From: Candidatus Eiseniibacteriota bacterium
GTDB lineage: Bacteria; Eisenbacteria; RBG-16-71-46
Reading direction: 5' to 3'
DNA: 64,000 nucleotides
Assembly (NCBI GenBank): GCA_963717935.1
Contig: CAVQXP010000004.1
Location: forward strand, 544,001 to 608,000
The notes under the pieces were generated by a model that saw only the letters and a program-made list of their open reading frames with translations, was not told the DNA's origin and did not search any database. The position numbers and the translations under genes are program-made. Positions 2,774 to 64,000 of the stretch are shown in pieces (the first letter of the stretch is position 1; each line of letters begins with the position of its first letter).

Positions 2774-2852
2774 GGCACCGAGGTTATCGGCCCGGCGGAA
2801 TGCGGGCTTGAGGCGTGCGCCGGCGCGGATCGCGCCCGCGCCGGGCGCCGGC

Positions 2853-6534: not shown

Positions 6535-6739
6535 CTCGAAACCTTTATGGGCGGATGAGACCCGCCGGACCGGCCTTGCAGCCGGGGTTTCGCGTGAATG
6601 GCGTTCCGGTCCGAGGCTGGCACCGGCTATGAAGAACCCTCGAGGTCGAGGGCGAGGCCTGAAGGATAGCGCAGCGGACGGGCGTTGCCTATGGAGGTGG
6701 CGGGGGCATTCGGCGCGGGCTCAGCGCCCGGGCGCGGGC

Positions 6740-7435: not shown

Positions 7436-7444
7436 GGCGATGGC

Positions 7445-23233: not shown

Positions 23234-23385
23234 GGCGTTCCTTTGGGGTGGTCGTGGGGGCCGGTCGGCCCCCTGTTTACAGGAGTCCGGCGGTGGCTGC
23301 AAACGGGCCGGTCGGACCGCCCGGGAATCGGCGGGCCCGCTCCGGGCACGACCGGAAGTCGCCGCGCCGTCGCGGGGGCGGGCGC

Positions 23386-26919: not shown

Positions 26920-27002
26920 GCCAAAAACCCGCCACGGGGATCTCCCGGGCGGTCCACGGCCGCGTTCGTGACGACGTCCCACCGCAGGGTGGGACCTGCG
27001 GC

Positions 27003-27032
27003 AGCCTAGCAGCGGGCCGCCGCGAGCCTCAA
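27003..27032 (-). promoter_or_regulatory. sigma70-type promoter for mfd (TTGAGG-N18-TAGGCT, extended -10 TG)
   Basis: Same TGC-TAGGCT -10 element as upstream of moxR. Confidence 0.5.
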
Positions 27033-27123
27033 GTGACGCAGGGCCCCCCACCCGCGGCTCCCGGCGGGCCCGGGGCGCCGCCGGTGAGCCGATTCCCTGC
27101 GCCCGGCATCACGGAAGGGGCTA

Positions 27124-41973: not shown

Positions 41974-43992
41974 TCAGGGCAACAGGACGAGCCGCGCCAT
42001 GCGCGTCAGGCCCGGCACGCTGAAGCGCGCGAAGTACAGACCCGCGGCGATCCCGTCGCCGCTCCCCCGCGGGCTCCAGCGCACTTCGTGGTGCCCCGCC
42101 TCGGTCTGGTCCGACACGACGCTCGCCACGCGCCGCCCCGAGAGGTCGAACACCTCCAGGCGGACTGGTGCCGCCATCGGCAGGTCATAGGCGAAGCGGA
42201 TCGCGTCGGTCGCGGGGTTCGGGCGCGGCGGGTAGAAGCGCAGCACGGTGGGCAGCCCGGGCGCCACGCCCGCGCCCACGGAGGTGACCCGCGCTCGCAG
42301 GGTCACGACCAGGTCGGGCTGGGGCTGGGCCCCGGGCAGCGCCTCGTCCGCGCTCGAGAAGGTGAGCGTGGCCTCGTAGGTCGAGTCGAACACGACCCCG
42401 GCCGTGTCGAGACGGATGGTATAGGAGGCCGGCGTCCCGCCGACCAGGGCGGGAGAGAAACCTCCCACGATCGAGAAGCGCCCGTCCCCGCCGGTGATGA
42501 CACCCGCGTTCAGGGCGAGTTGCGCCTGCAGGTCATCGTATCCCGGGTTGAAGACGTCGAGCGACGTGTCCTGGAAGGCCTCCGGCAGCCGCTCCCCGAA
42601 GTCGAGCGTGTCGGCCAGCACCGTGGCCAGCAGGTCGAGCGAAGCCGAGGCGTGGCGCAGGACCTTGCCCGAGAGCAACACGCTCTTCGACAGCGTGTCC
42701 GGGTCGTTCGTGGCGAGGGTGAGCGTGCCGCTCTTCACCCCGGCCGTGACGGTGCTCATGCCGATGGTCTGGCTGGTGGCCGTCGCACCCGCGGGTTGGG
42801 CGAAATCCCCCGGCGGTGCGGTGAAGTCGATGGGCGGGCTCAGGCTGTAGCGCAACGAGTCACCCGGCAGCGTGAGCGGGTTCGAGCCGGAGACCGTGTA
42901 GCCGACGGGCTGGGGCGCGATGTTCGAGATGGCGAGCGGCAGTTCGGCGGTCGCGCCGGTGATGACCGAGCCGAACACGAGCTGCGAGGCGGCCGAGATC
43001 TTGGCCGGCAGCCGGAGGACGGCGACCACCGGGATGTGGTCCGAAGCGTTCTTGAGCGCGGTCGCGATGGTGTAGCCCACGGCGTTGTTGAAGCCACCGC
43101 CGTTGATGTCCGTGTTGAAGTGCGCGCCGTCGTTGCCGTAGGTGTTGTAGGCCACGACCTCGAGTCCCTGTCCGTCCTGCGCGGAGTACGAGGAGAGCAG
43201 CAGGTCGAAGCGGTCGTCCATGCCGCCGCCGGAGAAGCTGATGCCCGGGATGCTGGGGCAGGTCGCGCACGCGCACTGCGTGTGCCAGAGCATGTAACCC
43301 GAGTTGTCGTGCCAGGAGCCCGGCATCAGCAGGTAGTCCTTGCAGCGCCCGTCGTTGTCGGTCTGCAGTTCGGTCAGCCGGATGTAGCCGCCCTCGTAGG
43401 CGCCGTAGAAGTTCGAATCGCCCCCGATGAGGAAGTTGGGGCCCGCCAGGGGTTGGTCCGTATTCAGGATGGTGGAGCGGATGTTCGTGCACTCGATGCG
43501 GCGGGCCGCCGAGTCCGCCACGCCCGCATTGAGGTGGATGGAGTAGAGGCGGAACCACCCCGGGTTGGTGCGATAGCCGACCGGCTTGACCAGGCACTGC
43601 AGGACCTTGCGGATGCCGCCGTCCGAGACGGCGCTGACGCTCACGATGCTCGCGGCCGCGGGTTTCCAGAACACCACCATGCCCTCGCCGGTGAGCACGT
43701 CCAGCCAGCTCGACCCCGTCCACTGCCCCGGCTGCACCACGTTGAGCACGTTGATGAGAAAGGAGTCGCGCGCCGCAGACGTGTCCAGCTCCTGGACGAT
43801 CAGGATGTCGGGGTCCATGGCCGCCATCACCGTGCGGAAGTCGGCCTGCCGCGGGGTGATGCCGATGGTCGAATTGTTGTAGCCGTACTGCAGCAGGTTC
43901 CAGGTCGCCACGCGCAGGGCGTGGGCCGGCGCGGCGACCGCGAGCAGCGCAGCCGCGCAGAGGAAGACGATTCGCCTCGGGCCGATTCTCAT
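41974..43992 (-). CDS. Secreted endonuclease/exonuclease/phosphatase (EEP) protein + Ig-like domains + FlgD/T9SS-like CTD (paralog B)
   Basis: ATWNLL, ILIVQE, IHLNAG, GDSN, DDRFD and ASDHIPV; tail PNP...VFDLSGRRV...AGLYFAR. Confidence 0.87.
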   Translation of the reverse strand: MRIGPRRIVFLCAAALLAVAAPAHALRVATWNLLQYGYNNSTIGITPRQADFRTVMAAMDPDILIVQELDTSAARDSFLINVLNVVQPGQWTGSSWLDVLTGEGMVVFWKPAAASIVSVSAVSDGGIRKVLQCLVKPVGYRTNPGWFRLYSIHLNAGVADSAARRIECTNIRSTILNTDQPLAGPNFLIGGDSNFYGAYEGGYIRLTELQTDNDGRCKDYLLMPGSWHDNSGYMLWHTQCACATCPSIPGISFSGGGMDDRFDLLLSSYSAQDGQGLEVVAYNTYGNDGAHFNTDINGGGFNNAVGYTIATALKNASDHIPVVAVLRLPAKISAASQLVFGSVITGATAELPLAISNIAPQPVGYTVSGSNPLTLPGDSLRYSLSPPIDFTAPPGDFAQPAGATATSQTIGMSTVTAGVKSGTLTLATNDPDTLSKSVLLSGKVLRHASASLDLLATVLADTLDFGERLPEAFQDTSLDVFNPGYDDLQAQLALNAGVITGGDGRFSIVGGFSPALVGGTPASYTIRLDTAGVVFDSTYEATLTFSSADEALPGAQPQPDLVVTLRARVTSVGAGVAPGLPTVLRFYPPRPNPATDAIRFAYDLPMAAPVRLEVFDLSGRRVASVVSDQTEAGHHEVRWSPRGSGDGIAAGLYFARFSVPGLTRMARLVLLP

Positions 43993-44001
43993 GTCACCTC
44001 T

Positions 44002-45978
44002 CTAGCGGACGATCGCGAGACGCACGGTCTGGGGTGGAAGTCCCTGCGCCGTCAGGCGCACGAAGTAGAGTCCCGAGCCCAGGGCGCCGGCGGTCTCGCC
44101 GCGGCCATCCCAGCGCAGGTTGTAGCGCCCGGGCGTGAACTCCCGGTCGGCGAGCAGCGCCACGCGGCGGCCCGAGAGGTCGAAGACCTCGAGACGCGCG
44201 CTGGTCATGCGCGCCAGGTCGAAGCGCAGCGTGCTGCCGGAGGTCAGCGGGTTCGGCATCGGCGTGTAGAGCCGCGTGGAGGTCGGGAGCGCCGGCTCGA
44301 CCGCCAGGGCGGAGTCGGCCGCGACGTGCGCGGCCAGCAGGTAGTGCACGTCGGGTTGCGCGGTGGCGCCGGGCAGCGGCTCGTCCGCGCTCGTGAAGGT
44401 GAGCGTGGCCTCGTAGGTCTGGCTCGCGGAGGCGCCCGTGGCGTCGAACTGCACGCCCCACCGCGCGGCCGTGCCCGCGACCAGCACCGGGCTGAAGCCG
44501 ATGATCGAGAAACGGCCGTCGCCGCCGGTGATCTGGGCGGCGCTCACCGAGAGCCGGGCGCGCAACGCCTCGTAGCCGCGGTCATGCACCGCGGCGAGCA
44601 AGGGGGTGAAGTCGCCGTCGGCGTGCTCGCCGAAGTCGAGCGTGTCCGCGACGACCGCCGCGAGCGAGTCGAGCGAGGCCTGCGCGTGATCGAGCACGGC
44701 GCCCGAGAGGCCGACCAGGGTGGTCGGGTCGTCCGGGGCGTCGGAGGAGATCGTGAGATTCCCGGACTTCAGGCCCACGCTGGCCGCGCTCATCGCGACC
44801 GGCGTCACGATCGATCCGCCCGCGGCCACGGCGAGCGGGCCCGGGGCGTCGAAGTCGGCCGGCGCGGCGAAGGTGCAGTTGAGCGAGTCGGCCGGCGCGA
44901 CGGCCGGGTTCGACACGGTCAGGTCCCGGCTCTGCGCCGGGGCGCCGACGATGACGCTGCCGAAGGCGAGGGCGTCGTCGGTGGTGAGCTTCGCCGGGAG
45001 CTGGATGTCCACGCGGACCGGGAGGTGGTCGCTGGCGTACCACAGCGCCCGGGCGTAGGCGGTGTCCGCCGGAAGGATCGGGGGGTCGGTGATGCTCAGG
45101 TTCAGGTGCTGGCCATCGTTGCCGACCGACTTGTAGGTCGAGGCCAGCAGCTCGAGCCCGGTCTGATCCTTCAGGTTGTAGGTCGGCAGGAACAGGTCGA
45201 ACCGGTCGTCCAGGCCGCCGCCGGAGTAGGACCCGCTGGGCCGGTACACCGTGGTCGAGGGGCACTGCGTGTGGATGCTGGCGAAGGCGGCGTTGTCCTG
45301 CCAGGTGCCGACCGCATTGAGCGGGTCATAGACGCGGCCGTCATTGTCGGCCTGGGACTCGAGGAACTTCTGGAAGCCCGATTCCGTGCTCGTGTAGATG
45401 TTGAAATCGCCGGTGATGATGCAGTGCGTCCCCGGCGGAACGTTGTTCATGGTGTCACGCAGGCCCGTCGCCTCGCGCAGGCGCTGGGCCGCGTCGGAGG
45501 TGCCGGCCTTGAGGTGCACGGAGTAGATCCTGAGTTCGGCGGCATCGGCGGAGTAGCCCACCGGCTTCAGCCGGTATTCGTTCACGTAGCGCGTCATGTC
45601 CGCCGAGACGAAGAAGGCCCGCTGGCCGAGGAACGCCACCTTCGCCGGCTTGTAGACGAGCATGTTGTTCGATTCCGGGCCGGCCGTGTACGGGGCCGAA
45701 CTCCACTGGCCCGGCTCCAGGACGTTCAGCACGTTCAAGCGGAAGGAGTCTATCCCCGCCGAGCTGTAGAGCTCTTGCGCGACGACGACATCGGCCCCGA
45801 GGGGCGACATCACGGTCCGGAAGTACGGGTTCCGGCCCGACACGTTCACGTTGGGGTAGTACATGAGGTTGTAGTTCACCACCCGCAGCGCATGGGCCGG
45901 AGGGACGAGCAGCAGCGCTAGGAATGCCACCGCGGAGTAGGTGCGCCAGCCGAGCGCGGGCCGGATCTGGGGGGCCAT
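44002..45978 (-). CDS. Secreted EEP protein + Ig-like domains + FlgD/T9SS-like CTD (paralog A)
   Basis: VNYNLM, VVAQE, VHLKAG, GDFNIY, DDRFD and ASDHLPV; tail PNP...VFDLSGRRV...WDGR...SGLYFVR. Confidence 0.87.
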   Translation of the reverse strand: MAPQIRPALGWRTYSAVAFLALLLVPPAHALRVVNYNLMYYPNVNVSGRNPYFRTVMSPLGADVVVAQELYSSAGIDSFRLNVLNVLEPGQWSSAPYTAGPESNNMLVYKPAKVAFLGQRAFFVSADMTRYVNEYRLKPVGYSADAAELRIYSVHLKAGTSDAAQRLREATGLRDTMNNVPPGTHCIITGDFNIYTSTESGFQKFLESQADNDGRVYDPLNAVGTWQDNAAFASIHTQCPSTTVYRPSGSYSGGGLDDRFDLFLPTYNLKDQTGLELLASTYKSVGNDGQHLNLSITDPPILPADTAYARALWYASDHLPVRVDIQLPAKLTTDDALAFGSVIVGAPAQSRDLTVSNPAVAPADSLNCTFAAPADFDAPGPLAVAAGGSIVTPVAMSAASVGLKSGNLTISSDAPDDPTTLVGLSGAVLDHAQASLDSLAAVVADTLDFGEHADGDFTPLLAAVHDRGYEALRARLSVSAAQITGGDGRFSIIGFSPVLVAGTAARWGVQFDATGASASQTYEATLTFTSADEPLPGATAQPDVHYLLAAHVAADSALAVEPALPTSTRLYTPMPNPLTSGSTLRFDLARMTSARLEVFDLSGRRVALLADREFTPGRYNLRWDGRGETAGALGSGLYFVRLTAQGLPPQTVRLAIVR

Positions 45979-52635: not shown

Positions 52636-52802
52636 GGCGGACCTCCGAAATGACCCTGGCGCAACCGAATGGGCCCACTTCCTTCGCCCCGGCCGGACTC
52701 TAGCAGACCGGGGCGCCCCGCGGCCCGGATCGCGGTTTTTCTTGCAGCGGCCCCGGCGTGGTGGGATGTTGGTTCCCGTTGCGTTCCGGAGAGCGGAGCG
52801 TC

Positions 52803-53165
52803 ATGTCACGAGTCATGCTGTATCACTGCCATGCGGCCGAGGAGCACGCGCTCCTCGACGAGGACCTGAGCTTCGTGTGCTGCGACGACTGCGAGGAGAT
52901 GCTCTCCGAGGTCGTCCAGCACCCCCCCGACGTGGTGGTCTACGAGGTCAGGCCCGAGAGCGTGTCAGACCTTGCCGTGTTGCGCCTGCTGCGCCGCGTG
53001 GTGCCGCGGGTCCCGTTCGTCCTGGTCGGAGAGGGCCGGGCGCCGGCGTGGGACGTCCCCGCCGAGCTGGCGCCACTTTACCGCTCCCCGCTCCCCGTGG
53101 AAGAGCGCGGCCTGCGCACGGCCGTCCGCCGCGCGCTCGCAGCGAGCGCCGACACCGCGAACTGA
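52803..53165 (+). CDS. Stand-alone pseudo-receiver domain protein, Cys/His-rich
   Basis: PPDVVVYEV...LRLLRRVVPRVPFVLV follows the receiver beta3-alpha3-beta4 pattern, with Glu in place of the phospho-Asp. Confidence 0.55.
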   Translation: MSRVMLYHCHAAEEHALLDEDLSFVCCDDCEEMLSEVVQHPPDVVVYEVRPESVSDLAVLRLLRRVVPRVPFVLVGEGRAPAWDVPAELAPLYRSPLPVEERGLRTAVRRALAASADTAN

Positions 53166-53237: not shown

Positions 53238-55334
53238 CTATGCCTCCCCGATCTTCCCGTCGCCACCGGCCTTCGCGGTCGCCCCGGCCTTCGCCTGCTC
53301 CTCGGCCTCCATGCGCGCCCACTCGGCCGGGTGCTCGCGGCGCAGCTGTTCCTCGTTGATGAGCCCTGTCACCCAGGCCCAGTTCATCGGATAGACGTCC
53401 GGGTTCAGCATGTTCTGGTAGACGTGCCAGACCAGGATGGCGACGAGGGCCAGCCAGGCCTCGTAGTAATGCACCAGCGTGGCCAGGTCGAGGACCCACT
53501 TGGGCATCCACTGGAGCGACTGGTTCGCGAACCAGAGCAGAACCCCCGTCACGGTCATCAGGATCACGCCCCAGACCAGGGACCAGTATTCCGCCTTCTC
53601 GATGTAGGTGAAGCGGTCGAAGGCCGGCGGGTCGCGGCGCAACCCCACCAGGTACAGGATGTTGGCCCCGGCCTCGCGCACGTCTCGCAGCCCCGGCAGC
53701 AGGGCGACGAAGGTGCCGCGACCGCGCCGGGTGAACAGATGGGCGACGTGCACCAGGGACGTCCCGACCAGGACGACCGCGGCGACCCGATGGATGAGGC
53801 TGCGCCAGGCGAAGGCCCCCTCCAGGCGCGCCATCCACGAGAACGGCCACGACTCGGGGAACTTGAGCGCGAAGCCGGTCCAGATCAGGGCGAAGAAGCT
53901 GATCATCAGCAGCGCGTGCTGGATCCGCTCGCTCCGGTTGGTGCGCTCGTACCAGCGCCCCAGGCCTCGCTCCGGCTCCACCTCGCCGCGGTAGAGCCGG
54001 TAGTGGCGGCGCAGCTTGCGGGTGAAGTCCAGCCCCTGATGGACGGCCATGCTCCCGCCGAGCCCGAAGATGAGCCAGAGGTAGATCAGCCGAACGTAGT
54101 AAAGGACCGGGCTGCCGGCCGTGGCGATGACGACATGCACGGGGCCCAGCGCCGACCACTTGCCGGCGCCGGGATGGCACTTGCCGCAGGTCTCGCCCAG
54201 TCGTTCCGGGTTCACCGCAGAGCGCGGGTCGCTCGAGGGCAGGATGTCGTGGAAACCGTGGCAGGAAGAGCAGTTAGCGACAGCCTTCGAGCCGCCACGT
54301 GAGGCCAGACCGTGGAAGGAATCACGATATGTCGTGAGTCGGCCGGCCGGAAGACCGTAGGTCTCGCGGAGTCCCTGGGCCTCGTGGCAACGCGAGCAGG
54401 TCGTATTCACCGCGGAGGCCACGACCGGCGAGGCTGGATCGTGGGGCCCGCGGATCAGGTGCTCGCCGTGGCAGTCCGTGCAGTTGGGCGCCGCGGTGAC
54501 GCCGCGGCGCAGCGCCTGGCCGTGGATGCCCGTTTCAAAGGCCGCGAACTCGCGGGTGTGGCAACGCCCGCAGGTGTGCGGGACGTTGGTGCGGAAGATG
54601 GATGACGTGGGGTCGTTCGCGCGCTTCAGGTCGTGGCTCTCGTGGCAGTCGCTGCAGGTGGCCGCGCGCGGGTCTCGCGAGCGCCCGTGCACGCTCTTCG
54701 TGTAGAGCGCGTAGGCCTCGGGGATGGTGATCCGGCGCCGGGTCATGAGCGCGCGGTTCGCGTGGCAGCGGGCGCAGGTGTGCGGCAGGTTCGCGCGGTT
54801 GACCGGCGAGGCGGGGTCCGTGTGCGGGCGGATCGAGTGGAATGGCCCGTGGCAATCCTTGCAGGTCGAGGCCTCGGGGTCGCCGCGCGCGAGCGCCGTG
54901 CCGTGGACGCTGCCCTGGTACTGCCCGGTCACCTGTGCGTGGCAGCCGACGCAGGCGTCCGGGCCGGTTCGCGCGGGCCGGCGCACCTGGTGCCCCGACC
55001 CGTGGCAACCCAGGCAGGCCACCTCGTGCGGGCCCGCGGCCTGCCGGTGGGCGCTGCCGGCAATGGCGGCGGTCGCATCCTGGTGACAGGTGCCACACTG
55101 GACCTGTGGCAGGGCGGTCGCATGCGGCAGGCCCTTCACGCCCCCGTGGCAGGCCACACACGCCAGCCGCCCGTGCGGGGAGGCCTCGAGTTGTGCGAGG
55201 TCCACGTACGCCGTGCCCCCGCCGGAATCGCGCGCGAGGGCTCGATCGACGTGGCAGGTCATGCACACGTCGTTGCCGAGCGGCCCGGCGAGCGCGGGCA
55301 GGGCCAGGAAGGCGGCGAGCAGCGCAGCCGCCAT
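53238..55334 (-). CDS. 13-heme cytochrome c fused to diheme cytochrome b (CbcL-like quinol oxidoreductase)
   Basis: 13 CxxCH counted; membrane domain ERIQH, LIHR, EKAEYW, VHYYEA...WHVY. The start may lie slightly upstream. Confidence 0.9.
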   Translation of the reverse strand: MAAALLAAFLALPALAGPLGNDVCMTCHVDRALARDSGGGTAYVDLAQLEASPHGRLACVACHGGVKGLPHATALPQVQCGTCHQDATAAIAGSAHRQAAGPHEVACLGCHGSGHQVRRPARTGPDACVGCHAQVTGQYQGSVHGTALARGDPEASTCKDCHGPFHSIRPHTDPASPVNRANLPHTCARCHANRALMTRRRITIPEAYALYTKSVHGRSRDPRAATCSDCHESHDLKRANDPTSSIFRTNVPHTCGRCHTREFAAFETGIHGQALRRGVTAAPNCTDCHGEHLIRGPHDPASPVVASAVNTTCSRCHEAQGLRETYGLPAGRLTTYRDSFHGLASRGGSKAVANCSSCHGFHDILPSSDPRSAVNPERLGETCGKCHPGAGKWSALGPVHVVIATAGSPVLYYVRLIYLWLIFGLGGSMAVHQGLDFTRKLRRHYRLYRGEVEPERGLGRWYERTNRSERIQHALLMISFFALIWTGFALKFPESWPFSWMARLEGAFAWRSLIHRVAAVVLVGTSLVHVAHLFTRRGRGTFVALLPGLRDVREAGANILYLVGLRRDPPAFDRFTYIEKAEYWSLVWGVILMTVTGVLLWFANQSLQWMPKWVLDLATLVHYYEAWLALVAILVWHVYQNMLNPDVYPMNWAWVTGLINEEQLRREHPAEWARMEAEEQAKAGATAKAGGDGKIGEA

Positions 55335-55803
55335 CGCGTTTCCCCCGGCCCGGCGCGGTCGCGCGCGCACCACGGTCCCGGCGCGCGGGGCCGCCAGCGG
55401 TGGAGAAGCTCGGTTCACGCCGGATGGCCTCCAGAAGGAAGAGGGTGTGGCCCCCCCCCGGACAAGGAATGGACCACGGAAGACCTTTTCTGGCAAGGTC
55501 TTCAAGCGGCCAAGTCGTCAGGTGGTAACGGGGGGCCGGGATGGTACCTTCGGATGTCTTGCCAGCGAGGCGCCAATTCAGTAGAAATACTGATGTCTGG
55601 GACGGCGCGGGGCCGCTCGCCGGCTCCCCGGCCCGGTCCTGTGCAAGGAACTCGCGGCGTTCGAGCGGTCCGTAGTTCTACCGAATCTTCGACGTGTCCC
55701 TTGCCGGAATTGGTTACTCTCCGAGACAGGTCTCGTGGGTCGCACGCGACGCCTCGACCTCGTGTTCTCAGGTGGGCGGTTACCTTCAAGGCCGGAGGGG
55801 CTG

Positions 55804-56367
55804 ATGATCAAGAGCATCTTCGCGTTCGTCGTGCTGGGGGTGCTGGCGGTGGGCGCCGCGTCGCGGGCCGCGGACGCTCCGAAGGCGGACGCGCCGAAGA
55901 ACGACTACGTCGGCACGACCCTGAAGACCTGCATGTGCCACTACAAAGAGTTCAAGGCGTGGTCGGCGACCCCGCACGCGCACGCCCTCGAGACCCTGCA
56001 GGCCACCACGCCCGAGCAGCTGAAGAAGATGAACGAGCGGCTCGAGACCGCGGTGAAGGATCACCCGGAGAGTGATGCCGCGTGCCTGGGCTGCCACGTG
56101 ACCGGTTACAGGACGGGCGGCTACCCCGCGGCTGACTCGCTCAAGAACGCCGCGCTGGCTCGCGTGACCTGCGAGGTCTGCCACGGCCCCGCCAGGAACC
56201 ACCTGACGGTGCCGGCCAACGACAAGGCGGGCCGGAAGGCCTCCATGCTGGTCCCGACGGCCGAGACCTGCAAGAAGTGCCACACCGATGCCACCTCGCC
56301 GAAGTTCGACTTCGCGGAGCGGAGCCAGAAGGTGCACCCCGTCGCCGCCAGGGCGCCCGCGAAGTAA
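55804..56367 (+). CDS. Periplasmic cytochrome c554-like tetraheme protein (3 CxxCH + 1 CxCH)
   Basis: GGAGG SD; signal peptide; YVG..TCMCH...W..TPHAHA, CLGCHVTG, VTCEVCHGP..H, CKKCH...FDF...KVH. Confidence 0.88.
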   Translation: MIKSIFAFVVLGVLAVGAASRAADAPKADAPKNDYVGTTLKTCMCHYKEFKAWSATPHAHALETLQATTPEQLKKMNERLETAVKDHPESDAACLGCHVTGYRTGGYPAADSLKNAALARVTCEVCHGPARNHLTVPANDKAGRKASMLVPTAETCKKCHTDATSPKFDFAERSQKVHPVAARAPAK

Positions 56368-56388
56368 GCGGACCGAAGCCGTCCGACG

Positions 56389-59229
56389 ATGGAGACCCGT
56401 ACGGGCCGGCCTGCCAGTCGCGGGCCGGCCCGCGGCCTGTTCACCGGGCTCCTCGCGCTGGCCGGAGCGCTCCTTGCCGGCGCGTTGCTCCACCCGGCGG
56501 CGTGGTCGGCGCCGGAGGCGGTGAAGCCGCTCCCCGGCGCCGAGGACTGCATGGCCTGCCACGAGGCCGGCCCGCCACTCGCGAAGCGCGACGCCGACAC
56601 GCCGCCGCGCTTCGACGCCTCCGGGCTGCGCGCCTCGCCCCACGCGAAAGTGGCCTGCGCCGCCTGCCACGCGGACCTCGAGGGCAAGGAGTTCCCGCAC
56701 GAGACGAAGCCGGCGCCGGTCCGCTGTGGCGCCTGCCATGCGACCGAGCAGCAGCAGTTCGTCGAGAGCCTGCACGGCCAGGCCGCCGCGCGCGGGGAGA
56801 AGCTCGCCCCCTCGTGCAAGGACTGCCACGGACGGCACGGCGTGCTGCCGCGCAACGACCCGCGCTCGCCCGCGAACACGGTCAACGTCCCCGCGCTGTG
56901 CGGGCGCTGCCATCACGAGGGCTCGCCGGTCCAGCTCACCTACCACATCCCGCAGGACTCGATCCTCCAGAACTACTCCGAGTCCATCCACGGCGAGGGG
57001 TTGTTCCGCAAGGGCCTGCTCACGACCGCCGTGTGCACCTCGTGTCACACCGCGCACCACGTGCTGCCGCACACCGACCCGCGCTCGAGCATCGCGCGCC
57101 GCAACGTGGCCGCCACCTGCACGCAGTGCCACGTGCGCATCGAGCAGGTGCACCGCAAGATCATCAACGGGGTGCTGTGGGAGAGCCGCCCCAACGACAT
57201 CCCCGCCTGCGTGGACTGCCACCAGCCGCACAAGGCGCGGCGGGTCTTCTATACCCAGGGCATGGCGGACCGCGACTGCCTGACCTGTCACGGCCGGCGC
57301 GAGCTGCGGGCCCAGGGCGGACGCTCGATGTTCGTGGACACGGCCGTGCTGCAGGGCTCGCGCCACGCGAAGATCGCCTGCGCGCAGTGCCACAGCGAGG
57401 CGCAGCCCTCGCACGCCCGGCCCTGCTCTTCGATCACGCGCCGGGTGGACTGCTCGGTCTGCCACGCCGGGGTCGTGGACTCCTACCGGGAGAGCACCCA
57501 TGGGCGACTGGCCGCGAAGGGCAGCCCCGACGCCCCGGCCTGCCGCGACTGTCACGGCACGCACGGCACCCTGGGGCACCTGCAGTCGGACGCGCCGACC
57601 TACGCGCGCAACGTCCCGGCGCTGTGCGGGCGCTGCCACCTGAGCGGCAAGCAGGCCCAGGTGCGCTATCGCGGGACGGAGCGCCGCGTGGTGGAATCCT
57701 ACGTCGAGAGCATCCACGGCAAGGGGTTGCTCGAGAGCGGCCTCACCGTGACCGCGACCTGCGTGGACTGCCACACCACGCACGGCGAGCTGCCGCACAC
57801 CGACCCGGCGTCCAGCGTCAACCCGGCGAACGTGGCGAAGACCTGTGCCCGCTGCCACCGGGGCATCTACGAGCTGTTCGCGGCCAGCGTGCACTCGCCC
57901 GTGGTGACGAAGACGAAGCGTCCGCTGCCCACCTGCTCCGACTGCCACTCGGCCCACACCATCAACCGCACCGACCGGCAGGATTTCAAGTTCGCGATCA
58001 TGAGCCAGTGCGGCAAGTGCCACGAGGACCTGGCGAAGACCTACTTCGAGACGTACCACGGCAAGGTCTCGCGGCTCGGCTACCTCAAGACCGCCAAGTG
58101 CTACGACTGCCACGGCGCGCACGACATCCAGCCGAACTGGGACCCCCGCTCGCACCTGTCGCGGCAGAACATCGTGAAGACCTGCGGCCAGTGTCACCCC
58201 GGCTCGAACCGGCGCTTCGCCGGCTACCTCACGCACGCGACCCACCACGAGCCGCACAAGTACCCGGCGCTGTTCTTCACCTTCTGGGGCATGACGGTCC
58301 TGCTGGTCGGCACCTTCGGCTTCTTCGGCCTGCACACGCTCGCCTGGCTGCCGCGCTCGCTCCAGTACCGGCGCCAGCTCGCGAAGTCGCAAGCCGCGGA
58401 GGGCGAGCTGCACGTGCGGCGCTTCCCGCCGCTCTACCGCAACCTGCACCTGATGGTGATCGTCTCCTTCCTCGGGCTGGCGCTCACCGGCATGACGCTC
58501 AAGTTCTCCTACACCCCGTGGGCCTACGTCCTGTCGCGGGTGCTCGGCGGGTTCCAGGCGGCGGGCTTCATCCACCGGGTCTGCGCGGGGATCACCTTCG
58601 CCTACTTCTTCCTGCACCTGCGCGACATGATCCGCCGCCGGGCGAAGTCCGGCGTGTCGTGGCGGACGTTCCTCGCCGGCCCGGGCGGGATGCTGCCCGG
58701 GCGGCGGGACCTCGAGGAGTTCTGGCAGTCGGTGAAGTGGTTCGCCGGCCGGGGCCCGAGGCCGCAGTACGGCCGCTGGACCTACTGGGAGAAGTTCGAC
58801 TACTTCGCGGTGTTCTGGGGCGTGGCCATGATCGGCTCGACCGGGCTCGTGCTCTGGTTCCCGACCCTCTTCACCCGGCTCCTGCCCGGCATCTTCATCA
58901 ACCTCGCGACCATCATCCACAGCGACGAAGCGCTGCTCGCGGTGGGCTTCATCTTCACCGTGCACTTCTTCAACACGCACTTCCGGCCCGAGAAATTCCC
59001 CATGGATACGGTGATCTTCACCGGCACCGTGCCGCTCGAGGAGTTCAAGCAGGACCGTCCGCGCGAGTACGAGGCCCTGACGGAGAGCGGCGAACTGGAG
59101 GCCCGGCTCGAGCCGGCGCCCGCGCCCCGCACGGTGCGCGCCTGGCGCATCTTCGGCTTCGTCGCTCTCTCGGTCGGCATCCTGATGGTGCTGCTGATCG
59201 TCTACGCGACGGTCTTCGGGTATCGGTAG
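56389..59229 (+). CDS. 19-heme cytochrome c fused to diheme cytochrome b (CbcL-like)
   Basis: 19 CxxCH counted; RNLH, FIHR, WTYWEKFDYFAVFWG and IIHSDEALLAVGFIFTVHFFNTH. Confidence 0.92.
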   Translation: METRTGRPASRGPARGLFTGLLALAGALLAGALLHPAAWSAPEAVKPLPGAEDCMACHEAGPPLAKRDADTPPRFDASGLRASPHAKVACAACHADLEGKEFPHETKPAPVRCGACHATEQQQFVESLHGQAAARGEKLAPSCKDCHGRHGVLPRNDPRSPANTVNVPALCGRCHHEGSPVQLTYHIPQDSILQNYSESIHGEGLFRKGLLTTAVCTSCHTAHHVLPHTDPRSSIARRNVAATCTQCHVRIEQVHRKIINGVLWESRPNDIPACVDCHQPHKARRVFYTQGMADRDCLTCHGRRELRAQGGRSMFVDTAVLQGSRHAKIACAQCHSEAQPSHARPCSSITRRVDCSVCHAGVVDSYRESTHGRLAAKGSPDAPACRDCHGTHGTLGHLQSDAPTYARNVPALCGRCHLSGKQAQVRYRGTERRVVESYVESIHGKGLLESGLTVTATCVDCHTTHGELPHTDPASSVNPANVAKTCARCHRGIYELFAASVHSPVVTKTKRPLPTCSDCHSAHTINRTDRQDFKFAIMSQCGKCHEDLAKTYFETYHGKVSRLGYLKTAKCYDCHGAHDIQPNWDPRSHLSRQNIVKTCGQCHPGSNRRFAGYLTHATHHEPHKYPALFFTFWGMTVLLVGTFGFFGLHTLAWLPRSLQYRRQLAKSQAAEGELHVRRFPPLYRNLHLMVIVSFLGLALTGMTLKFSYTPWAYVLSRVLGGFQAAGFIHRVCAGITFAYFFLHLRDMIRRRAKSGVSWRTFLAGPGGMLPGRRDLEEFWQSVKWFAGRGPRPQYGRWTYWEKFDYFAVFWGVAMIGSTGLVLWFPTLFTRLLPGIFINLATIIHSDEALLAVGFIFTVHFFNTHFRPEKFPMDTVIFTGTVPLEEFKQDRPREYEALTESGELEARLEPAPAPRTVRAWRIFGFVALSVGILMVLLIVYATVFGYR

Positions 59230-59270
59230 GCGATCCGCGCCCGGTCCGGGTCGCGCGAGCGCACAGCCAG

Positions 59271-59303
59271 CGGGGCGGGCGGAAAAGCTCTCCGCCCGCC
59301 CCG
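59271..59303. terminator. 13-bp hairpin between convergent genes
   Basis: CGGGGCGGGCGGA-aaagctc-TCCGCCCGCCCCG. Confidence 0.65.
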
Positions 59304-59325
59304 TTCCGGTACGCCCCGCCCCGCC

Positions 59326-59673
59326 CTACGCCACCGCCCGACCCGCGTTGAGGTGCGCCACCGCCTCGTGTTCGCTGTCGTAGAGCGGCAGCGCGCCTGC
59401 GAGGTGGGTCACGTCGAGCAGCCAGCGCTGGGGGCCGGCCGCACCGCAGAGCGCCAGGCCTCCGCCGTTCGCCGATGCGGTCCACTGCGCCCGCGCGAGC
59501 ACGCCCAGGCAGTGCGCGGTCAACACGCGCGCATGGCTGAGGTCCACGATCACGCGGCGGCCCCGCTCGGCCAGCGCGGAGAGCTCGCGCTCCAGCTCGT
59601 CGCAGGCGGCCCCCTCGATGAGGTCCCCGCTCGGCTGGAGCACGACCAGTTCGTCTACCGCGTGGGAGGTCAT
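59326..59673 (-). CDS. STAS-domain (anti-sigma antagonist-like) protein
   Basis: VVLQPSGDL, VIVDLS, GGLALCG, LLDVTHL...LYDSEHEAV; GAAGGAG SD. Confidence 0.85.
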   Translation of the reverse strand: MTSHAVDELVVLQPSGDLIEGAACDELERELSALAERGRRVIVDLSHARVLTAHCLGVLARAQWTASANGGGLALCGAAGPQRWLLDVTHLAGALPLYDSEHEAVAHLNAGRAVA

Positions 59674-59940
59674 GGGTTCGACTCCTTCCGTCCGGGCCCG
59701 GGACTGCGTGGGTTCGTCGTCACACGGTAGGACGGAAGGCAGGCGGGAAAGGTTGCCAGTCCCGTCCGGGCGCCCCGGGGCGGGCCACGAGCGCGGCGCG
59801 AAGGCGCCGGGAGGTCAGGGAGGTGTAAGGCGCTGCGCGCTCCCGTTTCGCGGCGCCGAACGCCGTCCGCTGGCGCGGGTGCTGCGGACGGCGGGCCGGC
59901 GCCGGGCGCCGCAGGTCACGGGCGCGGCCGGCCCGCGACC

Positions 59941-61773
59941 TCAGCCCTGGTGGCACTGCGCGCACGCGGCCTGCGTGGGCCTCAACCGGCCGCCCGCCGG
60001 GTCGTGGCAGGTCTTGCATTCCAGTTCCATCGCGAGATGGGCCTCGTGGGAGAAGTCCCCGCGGAAGCTCCGCACGGTGCGCGTCTTCACGTCGGCGTGG
60101 CATTGCAGGCACGAGCCACCGGCGACCGCGGCCTTCCGATGATGGCAGGGGACACAGCCGGCCGGCCCGAAGCGCACGACTTCCCCGGGTCCGCGCTGCT
60201 CGTGCGTCCGGTGACAGGCGGCGCACTCGAGTTTCGCCTCGAGCAGGTGCGGACCATGGTCGAAGGCCTTGCCCTGCCAGGCCCCGCGCTGTGCTTCGAC
60301 GCCGGTGTGGCACAACAGGCAGCGTCCCGAACTGGCGCCCGCGCGCCGCCAGGGCGACGCGAGCGGGGCCAGTCCCTTCGCGCGGCGCGCCTCGTTCATC
60401 CGCTCGTGCGCCTCGTCGAGCAGGGCGTAGGCGTAGGTGATGTTGTGCACGGCCCGGCCCCGCGAGACCAGCAGGAAGTCGTGCCGCGCGTCCTGCCAGG
60501 CCTGCGGCGGCTCCGGGCCCATCGCGCCCGCGGTCGCCTCGAGCTGGCGCTGCAGCGCGGTGACGCGCTCCGCCGAGGCGCGCTGCCAGGACTCGAAGAT
60601 CCGCTGGTAGGCGGGCCCGTGGCAGGCCATGCAGGAGACGCCGTCGGCGCGCTGGATGACGGGCTCGAGCGGATCCCTCACGGCCCGGGCCGCTGCGGTC
60701 CTGTCGTCGTGACAGCCCCGGCAGGTGACGCCGACTGCGTACATCGGTCCGGGCATGTCGGGCACGCCGCGTCCGCCGGTGCCGGCGTAGAGGCTCTGCT
60801 GCGCGCTGTGGCCCGCGCCGTGGCAGGCGCCGCAGGCGCTTGCGTCGCCGGGGCCCGCGTCGTGCGCGTCGCCCGCCCGGGCCGCCCCCGGCGGCGTGCC
60901 GTGCTCGATGGCCAGGTGGCAGTCCGTGCAGTCCACCTTGTGCTTCGAGACGTGCCAGTCGTGCAGGTAGTCCGTGTCGCCGTAGCGCGCGAGCCGCTCG
61001 GGCTGGTTGTGGCAGGTGAGGCAGTGGGTCTGCGGCACGTCGCCCGCTCCGCGGTTCACGCCCGCGTGACACGCGGTGCACTCGGTGCCCAGGCGCGCGA
61101 CCTCGCCGTGGTCGAACGCGGTGCCGGCGGCGGTGGTGACGCGTCCCGGGACGGTGTGACAGAGCCGGCAGCGCGCGGTGCCCTGGTCCGGCGCCTGGCC
61201 CTTGAAGTGGCACAGCGCGCACGTGACCGGGGTGACCGCGATGTGGGTTCCGACCATGACCTGCGAGTGGCACGAGGTGCAGCGCAGCCGGAAGCCCTTG
61301 CGGCTCTCGGTCAGGTGGGGCGTGTGATCGAAGATGACGCCGTGATAATCGACGCGGCCCTCGAGCAGCCGGCGCTCGTGGCAGCGCAGGCAGTTGGCGT
61401 CGTCCACCTCGGCCCAGGGCTTGGTGCCATAGGTGCCGGTGAAGTACTTCACCACCATCGAGAGCGCCTCGTACTTCTTGCGCAGCTCGGCGCCGATGCC
61501 CGGCGAGATGTGGCAGTCCACGCAGGCGACCTGGTTGTGCTTCGAGGTCTTCCACGAGGCGTAGTAGGGCTTCATGACGTGGCAGGTGCCGCAGAACCGC
61601 GGCGTCGAGGTGCCCAGCATCGCCAGCAGGACGAGCACGGCGAAGAGCCCGAGCGCGAGCCCGACGGTGAGCGTGGCGACGCGCAGGCCGCGGGGCGAGA
61701 GCCGCCCGCCGCCGCGGCGGTCCACCCAGCGGCCGAGGCGGGAGTCGGGTCCGAGGCCCGGCAGCGGCGGCAT
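59941..61773 (-). CDS. 18-heme cytochrome c with NapC/NrfH-like N-terminus
   Basis: Single N-terminal TM, TSTPRFCGTCHVM (CxxCHxM), W..SKH...CVDCH; 18 CxxCH counted; FDH/FSH c3-like modules. Confidence 0.9.
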   Translation of the reverse strand: MPPLPGLGPDSRLGRWVDRRGGGRLSPRGLRVATLTVGLALGLFAVLVLLAMLGTSTPRFCGTCHVMKPYYASWKTSKHNQVACVDCHISPGIGAELRKKYEALSMVVKYFTGTYGTKPWAEVDDANCLRCHERRLLEGRVDYHGVIFDHTPHLTESRKGFRLRCTSCHSQVMVGTHIAVTPVTCALCHFKGQAPDQGTARCRLCHTVPGRVTTAAGTAFDHGEVARLGTECTACHAGVNRGAGDVPQTHCLTCHNQPERLARYGDTDYLHDWHVSKHKVDCTDCHLAIEHGTPPGAARAGDAHDAGPGDASACGACHGAGHSAQQSLYAGTGGRGVPDMPGPMYAVGVTCRGCHDDRTAAARAVRDPLEPVIQRADGVSCMACHGPAYQRIFESWQRASAERVTALQRQLEATAGAMGPEPPQAWQDARHDFLLVSRGRAVHNITYAYALLDEAHERMNEARRAKGLAPLASPWRRAGASSGRCLLCHTGVEAQRGAWQGKAFDHGPHLLEAKLECAACHRTHEQRGPGEVVRFGPAGCVPCHHRKAAVAGGSCLQCHADVKTRTVRSFRGDFSHEAHLAMELECKTCHDPAGGRLRPTQAACAQCHQG

Positions 61774-63021
61774 CTAGCCCCTTTTCGCGGCCTGATCGCG
61801 GAAGCGCTTGAGCACGAACAGCGTCAGCAGCACGTAGAACCAGAACGCCAGGAGCACGTACTTGTGCTGGCGCAGGTTCCCGAGCTTGCCCCGGATCTCC
61901 TGCTGGACCTCCTGGCCCACCGCGCGGGCCCGCGTGGTGAAGCCGGCCACGACCTCCGGCTGCACGGAGTGCGCCGCGGGCAGAGCCTCGCGCAGATAGG
62001 TGCGCGCCTCCTCGATGCGGGCGTGATAGTCCTCGGTCGGGATGGGGATGGCGTCGGCCTTCACGACCAGCGCCACGGCCTTGTCCACCTCGTCCGCCGC
62101 CGTGCGGTAGTCGGACCCGATGCGCCGGCCCAGGTCGAGACGGCGTGAATCGCCCTCGTGGCAGAGGACGCACGAAGTCGCCAGCCGTTCGGGCCGGGTG
62201 GCCTGCACGGCGTGGGCCCCGTGGCAGGTGGCGCACTCGGGGCGCCGGCCGCCCGCCTGACCGCCGGTGGCGGCCGCGGCCGCGTGCGCGCCCGCGGCGA
62301 GGTAGCGCCGCTCGACCGTGTGGCACCGCCCGCACACCTTGATCACCGAGCCCGCGTCGGGCGGGGCGGCGCCGTGCGCGCCGTGACAGGAGACGCAGGT
62401 GGGCGCGCGCAGGTTGCTCTTCCCGGCCAACTCCTGCGCGTGCACGCTCGACTCGTACTGCCGGAAGACGTTGGGTCGCCCGCGCGGTCCCATGAGCACG
62501 GTGTCCCCGTGGCAGCGCCCGCAGGTGCGCGGGACATGGAGCGCGTACGTCGAACTCGCGGGGTCGCGGGTCGCGAGGATCTCGTGCGCGCCATGGCAGT
62601 CGGAGCACACCGCGACCCGGTCGTCGCCCCGCGCGAGCCGTCGCCCGTGCCCCGAGATCTGGTAGAGCGCGTACGAGTCCACGGGCAGGCCATAGGGGCG
62701 CATCCGGGCCTCGTCCGCATGGCACGAGGCGCAGAGCTTCGGGATGTCCCGGCGCGCGGGACGGCCGCGGTAGTCGCGGCCGTGGGCGACCGCGGCGTCG
62801 AGGCTGCGGTCGTCGCCGCCGTGGCACGAGACGCAGCGCACGCCTTCGGGGGCGTGGCGGCTCTTCTCGAACTGGACGCGCTCGGCCGGGTGACAGATGC
62901 CGCAGCGGCCCGAGGCCGCGGTGACGGCCGCCGATCCCGCCGCAGGCGCGGGCGGACCGGTCTGCGCGTGAGCGGTCGGGGCCGTGGCGGCCAGGAGCAG
63001 GAGAGCGAGCGCGGTCCTCAT
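61774..63021 (-). CDS. 9-heme cytochrome c with signal peptide, helical stalk and C-terminal membrane anchor
   Basis: MRTALALLLLAATAPTAHA; 9 CxxCH; C-terminal YVLLAFWFYVLLTLFVLKR. Confidence 0.9.
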   Translation of the reverse strand: MRTALALLLLAATAPTAHAQTGPPAPAAGSAAVTAASGRCGICHPAERVQFEKSRHAPEGVRCVSCHGGDDRSLDAAVAHGRDYRGRPARRDIPKLCASCHADEARMRPYGLPVDSYALYQISGHGRRLARGDDRVAVCSDCHGAHEILATRDPASSTYALHVPRTCGRCHGDTVLMGPRGRPNVFRQYESSVHAQELAGKSNLRAPTCVSCHGAHGAAPPDAGSVIKVCGRCHTVERRYLAAGAHAAAAATGGQAGGRRPECATCHGAHAVQATRPERLATSCVLCHEGDSRRLDLGRRIGSDYRTAADEVDKAVALVVKADAIPIPTEDYHARIEEARTYLREALPAAHSVQPEVVAGFTTRARAVGQEVQQEIRGKLGNLRQHKYVLLAFWFYVLLTLFVLKRFRDQAAKRG

Positions 63022-63025
63022 CGCC

Positions 63026-64000
63026 CTACCTCCGTTCGAGCAGCGCGCCGAGCACGCTGAGCACGAGCCACGCTCCGAGCACGGCAACGCCGGCCAGCCG
63101 GATGCGGCGCCTTCGCGGGCGGGTCTCCTCGCCGCGCAGCCACAGCGGCATGAGCAGCACCGCGATGGCCGCCGCCAGCAGCACGAGCCCGCTCAGCCAC
63201 GCGGGCACGGGCAGGTGCTGCAGCAGGACATAGGGGGCCAGCATGTACCACGGCGGGCGCGCTCCGCCGGGCGTGGCGTAGGGGTCGGCCGCGCCGTGGA
63301 AGCGGAAGGGCAGCAGCGTGGCCAGGGTGACCAGCACGGCGAACAGGCCGACCGTGAGCATGGTCATCGAGTAGACGTGCTCGCGATAGTGGATGGTCCG
63401 CTCGTCGCGCACCGCCTCGGCCCGGCTCAGACCGACGCGCCGCAGCGTGGCGAAGGTCAGGTAGAGGAAGCCGGCGTAGAACACCGGCAGGACCATCAGG
63501 TGCAGCACGTAGAAGCGGATCAGCACGTCCGCATTCACGGTCCGTCCACCCAGCAGGAAGGCCAGCACCGGGCCGGCGATCGGGATCGCCCACACGACCT
63601 CCAGCCCGCGCACCGTGCTCCAGTAGGTGTGCGAGTCCCAGATGAGGAGCCTCCCGGTGAAGTCCGACTGGATGACCACCCAGGTCGTGGCCACCGCGCA
63701 CCACCACAGCACCTCGCGCGGGGCGCGGTACAGACCCTCCCAGAAGAACCGCAGCAGCCGCAGCACGATGACGCCCACCAGCAGCCACGAGCCCCAGGCG
63801 TGCATCTGGTGGATGAACCAGCCGCCCGGCAGGTCGCGCACGATGGTGCGCGTGCTCTCGAAGGCGGCCTCGGGCGTGGGCCGGTAGTAATAGGCGAGCA
63901 GGACGCCCGTCACGATCTGCAGGCCGAACAGGATGGCGGCCAGCAGTCCCAGCGCGCGCGCGCCGTGCGCGTAGCGGGGCACCGGCTCCGCGGCCACGTC
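63026..64000 (-). CDS. Cytochrome b of bc/b6f type (b6 + subunit IV fused), 5'-truncated by window, lacking heme bH ligands
   Basis: LQIVTGVLLAYYYRP, GWFIHQMHAWG, PREVLW, FTGRLLIWD, RFYVLH and PPWY; frame open to the window end. Confidence 0.9.
   Translation of the reverse strand, partial: DVAAEPVPRYAHGARALGLLAAILFGLQIVTGVLLAYYYRPTPEAAFESTRTIVRDLPGGWFIHQMHAWGSWLLVGVIVLRLLRFFWEGLYRAPREVLWWCAVATTWVVIQSDFTGRLLIWDSHTYWSTVRGLEVVWAIPIAGPVLAFLLGGRTVNADVLIRFYVLHLMVLPVFYAGFLYLTFATLRRVGLSRAEAVRDERTIHYREHVYSMTMLTVGLFAVLVTLATLLPFRFHGAADPYATPGGARPPWYMLAPYVLLQHLPVPAWLSGLVLLAAAIAVLLMPLWLRGEETRPRRRRIRLAGVAVLGAWLVLSVLGALLERR

Follow-up and report, generated by a model that had tools for sequence, protein, structure and literature searches.

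A multiheme cytochrome island of an Eisenbacteria genome encodes a Rieske-type cytochrome b without the histidine ligands of heme bH

Introduction

Must every Rieske/cytochrome b complex run a Q cycle, and through how many gates may a bacterium connect its quinone pool to the periplasm? Both questions are raised by a dense cluster of cytochrome genes at positions 53238-64000 of a 64,000-nucleotide stretch of DNA from Candidatus Eiseniibacteriota bacterium (GenBank assembly GCA_963717935.1, contig CAVQXP010000004.1, positions 544,001 to 608,000 of the forward strand; the whole stretch is called the window hereafter). The cluster, here termed the island, comprises seven genes, i.e. five genes for c-type multiheme cytochromes (A to E), one for a cytochrome b (F) and one for a small STAS protein (Table 1). 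Here we show that F has lost both of the histidines that ligate heme bH and that this changed state is conserved among its closest homologues. The complex of F, its Rieske partner and the multiheme proteins E and D is probably a bc-complex variant that cannot run a Q cycle. We consider it slightly better than an even chance (probability about 0.55) that the island links the (mena)quinone pool to multiheme cytochromes of the periplasm through three inner-membrane gates in parallel, serving anaerobic extracellular respiration.

Results

Cytochrome b F lacks both ligands of heme bH

F is a long cytochrome b in which the b6 and subunit IV parts are fused (PF00033, 109 bits, 3e-31; PF00032, 33 bits, 6e-8), and its best NCBIfam match is ExtP of the selenite/tellurite operon, with 140 bits compared to a cut-off of 290. 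Since homologues have 376 residues, about 53 N-terminal residues of F are missing at the window end. We aligned F residue by residue (HMMER) to three mitochondrial cytochromes b and two cytochromes b6, all of solved structure. The heme bL ligands H67 and H167 are kept, while the positions of the heme bH ligands are taken by R81 and T182 instead of histidine, and no other histidine is present in the helix halves where the bH ligands would sit. The motif at the quinol oxidation site (Qo) is PPWY. Judging from these residues, F would lack heme bH itself. An earlier note on this DNA had called F a bc-type cytochrome b; it is not an ordinary one, as both heme bH ligands are lost.

The loss is not confined to this protein. 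A search of cluster representatives with F returned 4539 matches at E<=1e-3, and the close family comprises 366 clusters at 90% identity with E<=1e-40 among 8000 scored candidates. In the 120 closest cluster representatives (64-93% identity) the bL ligands are intact and PPWY is found in 118, while the two bH positions hold R/T in 119 cases and R/S in one. We interpret this as conservation of the changed state and not as decay. The wider ligand survey covered the best 150 representatives at 50% clustering, 123 of which have canonical ligands. Arginine occupies the helix-B position in 16, accompanied at the helix-D position by histidine in 11 and by T, S, R, N and Q in one each; two others are fragments without the helix-B region that have threonine at the helix-D position, and the last nine are single oddities and fragments. 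In a tree of 133 cytochromes b, from which sequences of fewer than 300 or more than 600 amino acids had been dropped, a single clade (support 0.915) unites all 18 Arg forms with one H/H sequence, giving 19 members.

F, E and D form an operon whose relatives include a Rieske gene

The TAG of F is followed after 4 nt by the ATG of E, and the TAG of E directly abuts the ATG of D. This spacing indicates a translationally coupled operon, in which E likely starts at the ATG at 63021. E comprises a signal peptide, nine hemes and one C-terminal transmembrane helix (residues 411-429). Its heme domain shares 30% identity with the last nine hemes of A (E 1e-31), and no match better than E 2.3e-3 was found among PDB sequences. 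We presume that E is the cytochrome c1/f equivalent of the complex.

To place the operon among its relatives we searched with protein E, using one genome per species, which gave 257 confirmed relatives, of which 80 loci were kept. The two best loci, L001 and L002 (the latter on a 3.6 Mb chromosome), both belong to metagenome-assembled genomes (MAGs) of Candidatus Eisenbacteria and are 73-74% (E), 82-83% (D) and 87-89% (F) identical to the island. In L001 to L004 a Rieske gene with intact CTH...CPCH motifs is located directly upstream of the F homologue. A Rieske gene in the adjacent sequence was what the earlier note had proposed to look for; in our case the Rieske protein is predicted to lie just beyond the window. 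Based on these relatives, F-E-D corresponds to a Rieske/cytochrome b complex with 27 c hemes. In L002 a Na+/H+ exchanger gene of opposite strand comes before the Rieske gene, from which it follows that the cluster probably ends less than 1 kb beyond the window.

The CbcL-like and Rieske/cytochrome b genes recur together in three phyla

A Rieske gene together with a cytochrome b was found in 14 of the 80 loci. The other 66 have no Rieske or cytochrome b match and were counted as not being E orthologues, because their match to E lies in the heme domain of A-like proteins. In 13 of the 14 loci the Rieske and cytochrome b genes adjoin the E homologue, the exception being L007, where they are about 7 kb away on the other strand. 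Eight of these 13 (L003, L004, L008, L012, L018, L049, L060 and L079), from Eisenbacteria, Acidobacteriota and Methylomirabilota, also contain a full-length A-like gene within about 5 kb. The gene order is A-Rieske-cytb-E-D in L003, C-A-Rieske-cytb-E-D in L004 and Rieske-cytb-E-(c7)-A-D-like in L060 and L079; in L049 an MtrA-like cytochrome and an MtrB/PioB porin precede Rieske-cytb-E-A. Thus, CbcL-like genes and Rieske/cytochrome b-multiheme operons occur as a recurrent pair in three phyla. L060 is labelled 'Patescibacteria group', and its cluster order and gene sizes equal those of the Methylomirabilis locus L079; the contig is probably mis-binned.

The fetched loci contain 17 cytochrome b ORFs (open reading frames). 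The bH positions are R/T in L001 and L002 and R/H in L003 (Acidobacteriota) and L004 (Eisenbacteria). The remaining 13 have H/H, with PEWY where that part is present; among them are the second cytochrome b copies of L001-L003 and all those of Methylomirabilota, Rokubacteria and Terriglobia. The four loci with an Arg form are exactly those in which the cytochrome b is followed by E and then by the 18-heme D.

Compared to the window, L001 (13299-19434) and L002 (13238-18912) carry about 6 kb extra between D and the STAS gene. Encoded there are a cytochrome with eight hemes, an NrfD-type membrane protein and a second operon of the Rieske/cytochrome b/9-heme type, the cytochrome b of which is canonical (H/H/H/H, PEWY). 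In L003 an upstream extension (3-6157) on the same strand as A-Rieske-cytb-E-D encodes 11-heme and 9-heme cytochromes, a B-like c554, a canonical cytochrome b (493-aa ORF) and another 9-heme cytochrome. Where homologues of A, D and F carry an organism name, this is mostly Eisenbacteria and in a few cases Terriglobales.

D combines an NrfH-like anchor with an OcwA/NrfA-like module

From the N-terminus D comprises a transmembrane helix (residues 35-53), an NrfH-like tetraheme part (motifs at 61, 84, 128 and 165), three hemes, an OcwA/NrfA-like pentaheme with helix bundle (approximately 242-465) and, at the C-terminus, six further hemes. Its 18 motifs are all of the form CxxCH, and none is CxxCK. 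The N-terminal part is recognized by PF03264 (49.3 bits, 6.3e-13; cut-off 24.1 bits) and matches NrfH (2j7a_C) with E 3.2e-7. The NrfH equivalog TIGR03153 scores 62.3 bits (4.8e-17) and does not reach its cut-off of 134.2, so D is NrfH-like and not an NrfH orthologue. Structural work on Desulfovibrio vulgaris NrfH reportedly established CxxCHxM as the signature of heme 1. The corresponding motif of D is CGTCHVM, and all 43 sequences compared have C61, C64, H65 and M67.

Residues 242-465 match OcwA (6i5b_A) with E 1.2e-14. Foldseek with an AlphaFold2 model of D (mean pLDDT, the predicted local distance difference test, of 62; predicted template modelling score pTM of 0.43) places OcwA, an S-layer undecaheme cytochrome, MccA and NrfA in the first ranks, OcwA being the best with E 9.3e-3, and yields no match at E<=0.001. 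Given these weak structural matches and the mediocre model, the link of D to OcwA rests on the sequence match. In the 43 sequences 17 non-motif histidines are invariant, in addition to Met67, for 18 hemes. These ligand counts would be more in keeping with an electron wire than with an enzyme that has an open heme.

A and C are CbcL-type fusions and B is a small c554-like cytochrome

A consists of a 13-heme c domain fused to an FdnI/HydC-like diheme cytochrome b membrane domain (PF01292, 60.5 bits, 2.3e-16, cut-off 30.1 bits; TIGR01583, 2.3e-14), and its best solved relative is FdnI (1kqf_C, 1.3e-4). The true start of A is likely the ATG at 55334, which gives a signal peptide beginning MAAALL. 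The hydrophobic segments of A lie within residues 458-692. A crude hydropathy scan found five segments in A and four in C after the heme domain, compared to about six helices expected for the family. When A and C were aligned with 30 homologues of A, all 32 sequences shared six membrane histidines (H489, H530, H572, H586, H679 and H694), and 13 non-motif histidines are conserved in A, matching its 13 c hemes. Among 8000 scored candidates 3726 are A homologues with E<=1e-3, and the best 120 are all below 1e-258.

C, which has the same six membrane histidines, can be aligned with A over 692 aa, a stretch that takes in the entire membrane part (BLASTP, 29% identity, E 9e-89). On this evidence C is a paralogue of A, with a 19-heme c domain and a predicted diheme b membrane domain, and it is 91% identical to a protein of L002 over 623 aa. 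The CbcL/MtrH/MtoC family surveyed by Zhong and Shi (2018) spans 15 phyla, 3-23 hemes and 416-1034 aa, with a sequence similarity of at least 28.6% among its members, and its table contains many 19-heme proteins of 906-952 aa (PMC6295460). With 13 and 19 periplasmic CxxCH motifs A and C lie within this range. The hemes of C are at 54, 90, 113, 143, 171, 216, 244, 274, 297, 331 ... 599, and those of the 19-heme MAF27600.1 (Gemmatimonadetes) at 53, 90, 113, 143, 171, 216, 244, 274, 297, 333 ... 603 (PMC6295460, Table S2), indicating that C belongs to a catalogued but uncharacterised 19-heme subgroup.

B is a small periplasmic protein resembling cytochrome c554 (PF13435, 1.3e-16), likely starting at the ATG at 55804, with a hydrophobic helix at residues 23-41 that represents an N-terminal signal or anchor. 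Besides its three CxxCH motifs it has one CMCH (CxCH), which aligns with CKMCH in the Acidobacteriota homologue of L003.

Layout of the island

Gene calls in the island are ORFs with the codon bias of real genes. The five cytochromes contain 62 canonical CxxCH motifs in total, and neither CxxxCH, CxxxxCH nor CxxCK was found in the island proteins. The remaining 32 ORFs of the window (15,462 aa) are free of CxxCH, and six-frame translation gives a single CxxCH in 1-53237 compared to 62 in 53238-64000. Chance is thereby excluded as the source of the heme motifs.

Table 1. Genes of the island, with window coordinates, strand, length and number of CxxCH motifs
Gene	Coordinates	Strand	Length	CxxCH motifs
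A	53238-55505	-	755 aa from first start	13
B	55735-56367	+	210 aa	3
C	56389-59229	+	946 aa	19
STAS protein	59326-59673	-	115 aa	0
D	59941-61773	-	610 aa	18
E	61774-63087	-	437 aa	9
F	63026-64000 (window end)	-	324 aa, open-ended	0

The tally of 13+4+19+18+9 (about 63) hemes in the earlier note agrees with our counts for A, C, D and E and has to be corrected for B, whose fourth motif is the CMCH, giving 62+1. The three transcription units proposed there may also be four, since strands and gaps make either number plausible (A; B-C; F-E-D; then STAS). That the cluster runs past the window is evident from gene F, which is cut by the window end, and the description of the island as a set of modules linking the quinone pool to the periplasm via multiheme proteins is supported.

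If the internal ATG starts of A (55334) and B (55804) are the true ones, a divergent intergenic region of 466 bp is left between A and B-C, likely a shared control region for both. The STAS protein (PF01740, 5.6e-8; TIGR00377, 5e-7, below cut-off), of the anti-sigma-factor antagonist type, is a possible regulator of the island. It is 88% and 81% identical in L001 and L002, respectively, and a STAS gene is found beside the cluster in these two of the 80 loci.

An outer-membrane conduit adjoins the operon in a relative

In L049, a Methylomirabilota MAG, the genes at 4446-7902, directly upstream of Rieske-cytb-E-A, encode an MtrA-like multiheme cytochrome and an 806-aa MtrB/PioB porin (PF11854, 2.2e-115). 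Members of the CbcL/MtrH/MtoC family have been described to adjoin mtrAB or mtoAB, and CbcL is needed for low-potential acceptors in Geobacter (PMC6295460; bioRxiv 10.1101/2021.04.15.440034). The link of the island to metal, humic or electrode exchange may be drawn from the MtrAB pair of L049, its sole direct genomic support, and a role of the island in extracellular electron exchange is plausible. The literature found on Eisenbacteria contains metagenomic hints and passing mentions only, in line with the expectation of the earlier note that this lineage is probably not known as electroactive.

Discussion

Homology to quinone sites is found in A, C and F and in the NrfH-like part of D, and the 62 c-heme sites are periplasmic. 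We propose that A and C constitute two of the three gates, in which, as has been suggested for CbcL, an FdnI-like diheme b domain would take quinol electrons to 13 or 19 periplasmic c hemes; the counts of conserved histidines are compatible with bis-His ligation of all these c hemes. The third gate would consist of the Rieske protein, F, the C-terminally anchored nine-heme E and the N-terminally anchored 18-heme D. As F lacks the bH histidines, this complex is most likely unable to pass the second electron across the membrane to the quinone reduction site (Qi). It may thus operate as a weakly coupled quinol oxidase without a Q cycle, delivering both electrons into periplasmic heme chains, and the proton release at Qo would be scalar only. 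B could serve as a soluble shuttle carrying electrons onward. The island would most likely be used for anaerobic respiration with acceptors reached via the periplasm, namely Fe(III)/Mn(IV) in extracellular or insoluble form, humics or partner cells. Several gates would cover different redox windows, like ImcH, CbcL and CbcBA in Geobacter, and a gate of low coupling would be sensible where the span between menaquinol and acceptor is small, a logic that has been proposed for these three systems (bioRxiv 10.1101/2021.04.15.440034). Here we infer complex formation, the direction of electron flow and the acceptors of the island.

A number of observations weigh against this proposal. The helix-A glycine of F and the arginine three residues after position 81 are retained, L003 and L004 still carry one of the two bH histidines, and heme bH could be bound in some unconventional way. 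PF01292 scores only 23.2 bits on C, below the cut-off, and A and C are assigned to the CbcL/MtrH/MtoC family by their predicted architecture and, in the case of C, by heme spacing. D is tentatively regarded as a subunit of the Rieske-F-E complex from gene order only. The Pfam scan, which covered 39 window ORFs, revealed no porin-cytochrome, outer-surface cytochrome, nanowire or cytochrome maturation gene, and no catalytic subunit either; the earlier note had likewise seen neither porin nor catalytic subunit here. The 21 kb around the cluster of the closest relatives L001 and L002 likewise showed no porin-cytochrome, outer-surface cytochrome, nanowire or maturation gene, and the MtrAB neighbour occurs in one distant relative, L049, whose cytochrome b is canonical (H/H/H/H, PEWY).

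Electrons might also run in the opposite direction, from extracellular Fe(II) or reduced minerals to the quinone pool, with A and C acting like MtoC and the Rieske/cytochrome b complex forming part of an uphill or branched path. The bc1 complex of Acidithiobacillus ferrooxidans works in reverse, and the MtrB/PioB-type porin of L049 is silent on direction. PPWY at Qo is otherwise reported for this very bc1, although it is explained there as an acid adaptation and not as a marker of direction (PMC4122944). The family of A and C includes MtoC of Fe(II) oxidisers, and its survey could not tell quinol oxidisers from quinone reducers by any sequence feature (PMC6295460); Cyc2 homologues have been reported in Eisenbacteria MAGs (PMC9769843). 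The window, however, contains no Cyc2, MtoAB or carbon-fixation genes, and without heme bH a cytochrome b would be unable to drive electrons uphill by the membrane potential in the manner proposed for reversed bc1. We regard reverse flow as unlikely.

It is distinctly unlikely, in our view, that D instead acts as the terminal enzyme reducing a soluble compound of the periplasm (nitrite, hydroxylamine, sulfite or oxyanions such as selenite) and is fed by its own NrfH-like quinol dehydrogenase, which would make the island a detoxifying or respiratory reductase system and not a wire to the outside. The NrfA-like pentaheme and helix bundle that D shares with OcwA, the CxxCHxM of its NrfH-like N-terminus, the presence of MccA and NrfA in the first Foldseek ranks and the ExtP match of F, though far below cut-off, would all suit such a function. 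OcwA reduces nitrite and hydroxylamine in vitro, yet with very slow nitrite turnover, and is itself a cell-surface terminal reductase for extracellular acceptors (PMC6703420). The absence of CxxCK from D argues against catalysis, as do the 17 invariant histidines and Met67, which could six-coordinate every heme except the NrfH-type heme 1; with ligands thus sufficient, no open catalytic heme is indicated. The Foldseek matches that would speak for a reductase are weak, as is the model. An ordinary bc complex that feeds oxidases and neighbours unrelated cytochromes by chance, its histidines lost through decay of a redundant paralogue, is highly improbable. The second, canonical operon a few kb away in L001 and L002 means that a redundant copy could drift. 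Such drift is difficult to reconcile with R/T and PPWY being kept in nearly all of the 120 closest homologues alongside intact bL ligands, with an Arg clade that comprises many 50%-identity clusters, with the intact motifs of the partner Rieske proteins and with the Rieske-cytb-E-D order that is maintained in four of four Arg-form loci from two phyla. Together these features point to purifying selection on a changed function and not to decay.

A variant of the three-gate proposal is that the Rieske-F-E-D complex dispenses with the Q cycle and still bifurcates at Qo, which we consider quite improbable. The Rieske protein and E would then form a high-potential wire, and the low-potential electron would exit heme bL sideways to the NrfH-like heme of D at the membrane surface, so that two periplasmic wires differing in potential could be supplied by one quinol. 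For the anammox Rieske/cytochrome b complexes, rerouting of the low-potential branch has been proposed (PMC12954380). If this were true, Eisenbacteria and some Acidobacteriota, abundant uncultured soil bacteria, could reduce acceptors more negative than the quinone pool, with the cost being paid by a simultaneous favourable reduction; this would be respiratory bifurcation of a kind not described.

The proposed gates resemble known systems in their parts. A and C share with CbcL (GSU0274) of Geobacter sulfurreducens and its family a multiheme c domain on the periplasmic side, a predicted FdnI/HydC-like diheme b domain (of six helices in the family) with conserved membrane histidines and, as is often the case in the CbcL/MtrH/MtoC family, adjoining cytochrome genes. 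They differ in size, CbcL having 9 hemes and 619 aa compared to 13 and 19 hemes in A and C, and in that the island pairs two paralogues with a Rieske/cytochrome b operon. Parts 2 and 3 of Table S2 of the family survey list no 13-heme member, and Eisenbacteria are missing from its Table 1 (PMC6295460). D shares one helix, four CxxCH and CxxCHxM with NrfH of Desulfovibrio vulgaris (2j7a_C) and the NapC/NirT family; however, it extends 440 residues and 14 hemes further and is in an operon with Rieske/cytochrome b, not with NrfA. With OcwA, the nonaheme of Thermincola potens (6i5b), it has the NrfA-like pentaheme and three-helix bundle in common. OcwA has two open hemes and is located on the surface of a Gram-positive bacterium, whereas D is anchored at the inner membrane and has conserved histidines sufficient for closed coordination.

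The closest counterparts of the operon type that we compared are the complexes of Kuenenia stuttgartiensis (Kuste4569-4574 and Kustd1480-1485), where a hexa- or octaheme protein replaces cytochrome c1/f on a Rieske/cytochrome b core; these retain their b hemes and comprise an additional NAD(P) oxidoreductase on the cytoplasmic side (PMC12954380). In contrast, the island loses the n-side heme ligands, and its extra subunits are periplasmic, with 9+18 hemes and an NrfH-like anchor. Natural losses of canonical heme b ligands have been described for the cytochrome b of Pyrobaculum, which lacks the second bH histidine (PMC4122944), and for cyanobacterial subfamily K, where the helix-2 histidine is replaced by Glu/Gln (PMC5600118). 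Both differ from F in lineage, substitutions and partners, and neither is in an operon with multiheme cytochromes. A survey of Qo motifs discarded all sequences in which at least one of the four histidines is missing (PMC4122944), so that a clade like F would have escaped notice there. CbcBA and ImcH are similar in concept, as alternative inner-membrane quinol oxidases for different redox windows. CbcBA consists of a four-helix HydC/PhsC-like diheme cytochrome b beside a 7-heme, C-terminally anchored cytochrome (bioRxiv 10.1101/2021.04.15.440034); F belongs to PF00033/PF00032 and not to PF01292, and a CbcBA-like reading was rejected. ImcH has three N-terminal transmembrane helices, one CX3CH, about six CxxCH and about 500 aa (PMC6295460). 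An ImcH-like reading was likewise rejected, as the island proteins contain no CxxxCH and D has one helix.

What is new here is the variant of a Rieske/cytochrome b complex without bH ligands; the other island proteins are new members of known families, as the CbcL family, NrfH, OcwA and Rieske/cytochrome b complexes with multiheme partners are all kinds already known. Multiple Rieske/cytochrome b complexes within one organism are reportedly the subject of ten Brink et al. 2013. For A and C, the claim of the earlier note that the system is undescribed is not supported: both fall into the surveyed CbcL/MtrH/MtoC family, in which nearly the same 19-heme spacing as that of C is listed (PMC6295460). 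Among public metagenome proteins, homologues of A number in the thousands and those of D and F in the hundreds. Our literature searches found no description of the F clade or of the operon type, and returned the Pyrobaculum and subfamily K cases only. Dibrova et al. also speak of a clade, G', found in 'large conserved operons of unknown function' (PMC5600118), which was not compared with F.

If F binds only heme bL, a large conserved Rieske/cytochrome b clade works without a Q cycle. The F clade would then amount to a natural experiment on the mechanism at the heart of complex III, and would allow respiration across energy spans that do not suffice for full coupling. CbcL-like genes paired with Rieske/cytochrome b-multiheme operons provide candidate inner-membrane markers for extracellular electron exchange in soil metagenomes. 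The phyla in question (Eisenbacteria, Acidobacteriota and Methylomirabilota) are abundant in soil and sediment and are uncultured or not regarded as electroactive, and current names of the proteins (formate dehydrogenase gamma subunit, NapC/NirT cytochrome, ubiquinol-cytochrome c reductase) are misleading.

Other features of the window

The rest of the window contains housekeeping genes, among them those for MetRS, TatD, Mfd, SurA, FtsEX and class II ribonucleotide reductase. The G+C content is 68-77% throughout, and neither Rfam at gathering thresholds nor a tRNA scan gave a match in the window. A 135-aa ORF with gene-like codon bias and without a Pfam match (52758-53165, + strand) adjoins gene A on the opposite strand. 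The mfd gene appears to be split over two frames (21773-27051, - strand): the ORF at 24670-27051 encodes the UvrB-interaction and CarD/TRCF domains, while the ORF at 21773-24871 starts directly at the helicase domains and has a PPIase domain at its end. The split is due to a frameshift, an assembly error or a fusion. At 41974-45978 (- strand) two tandem paralogous ORFs of 672 and 658 aa show weak matches to endonuclease/exonuclease/phosphatase domains.

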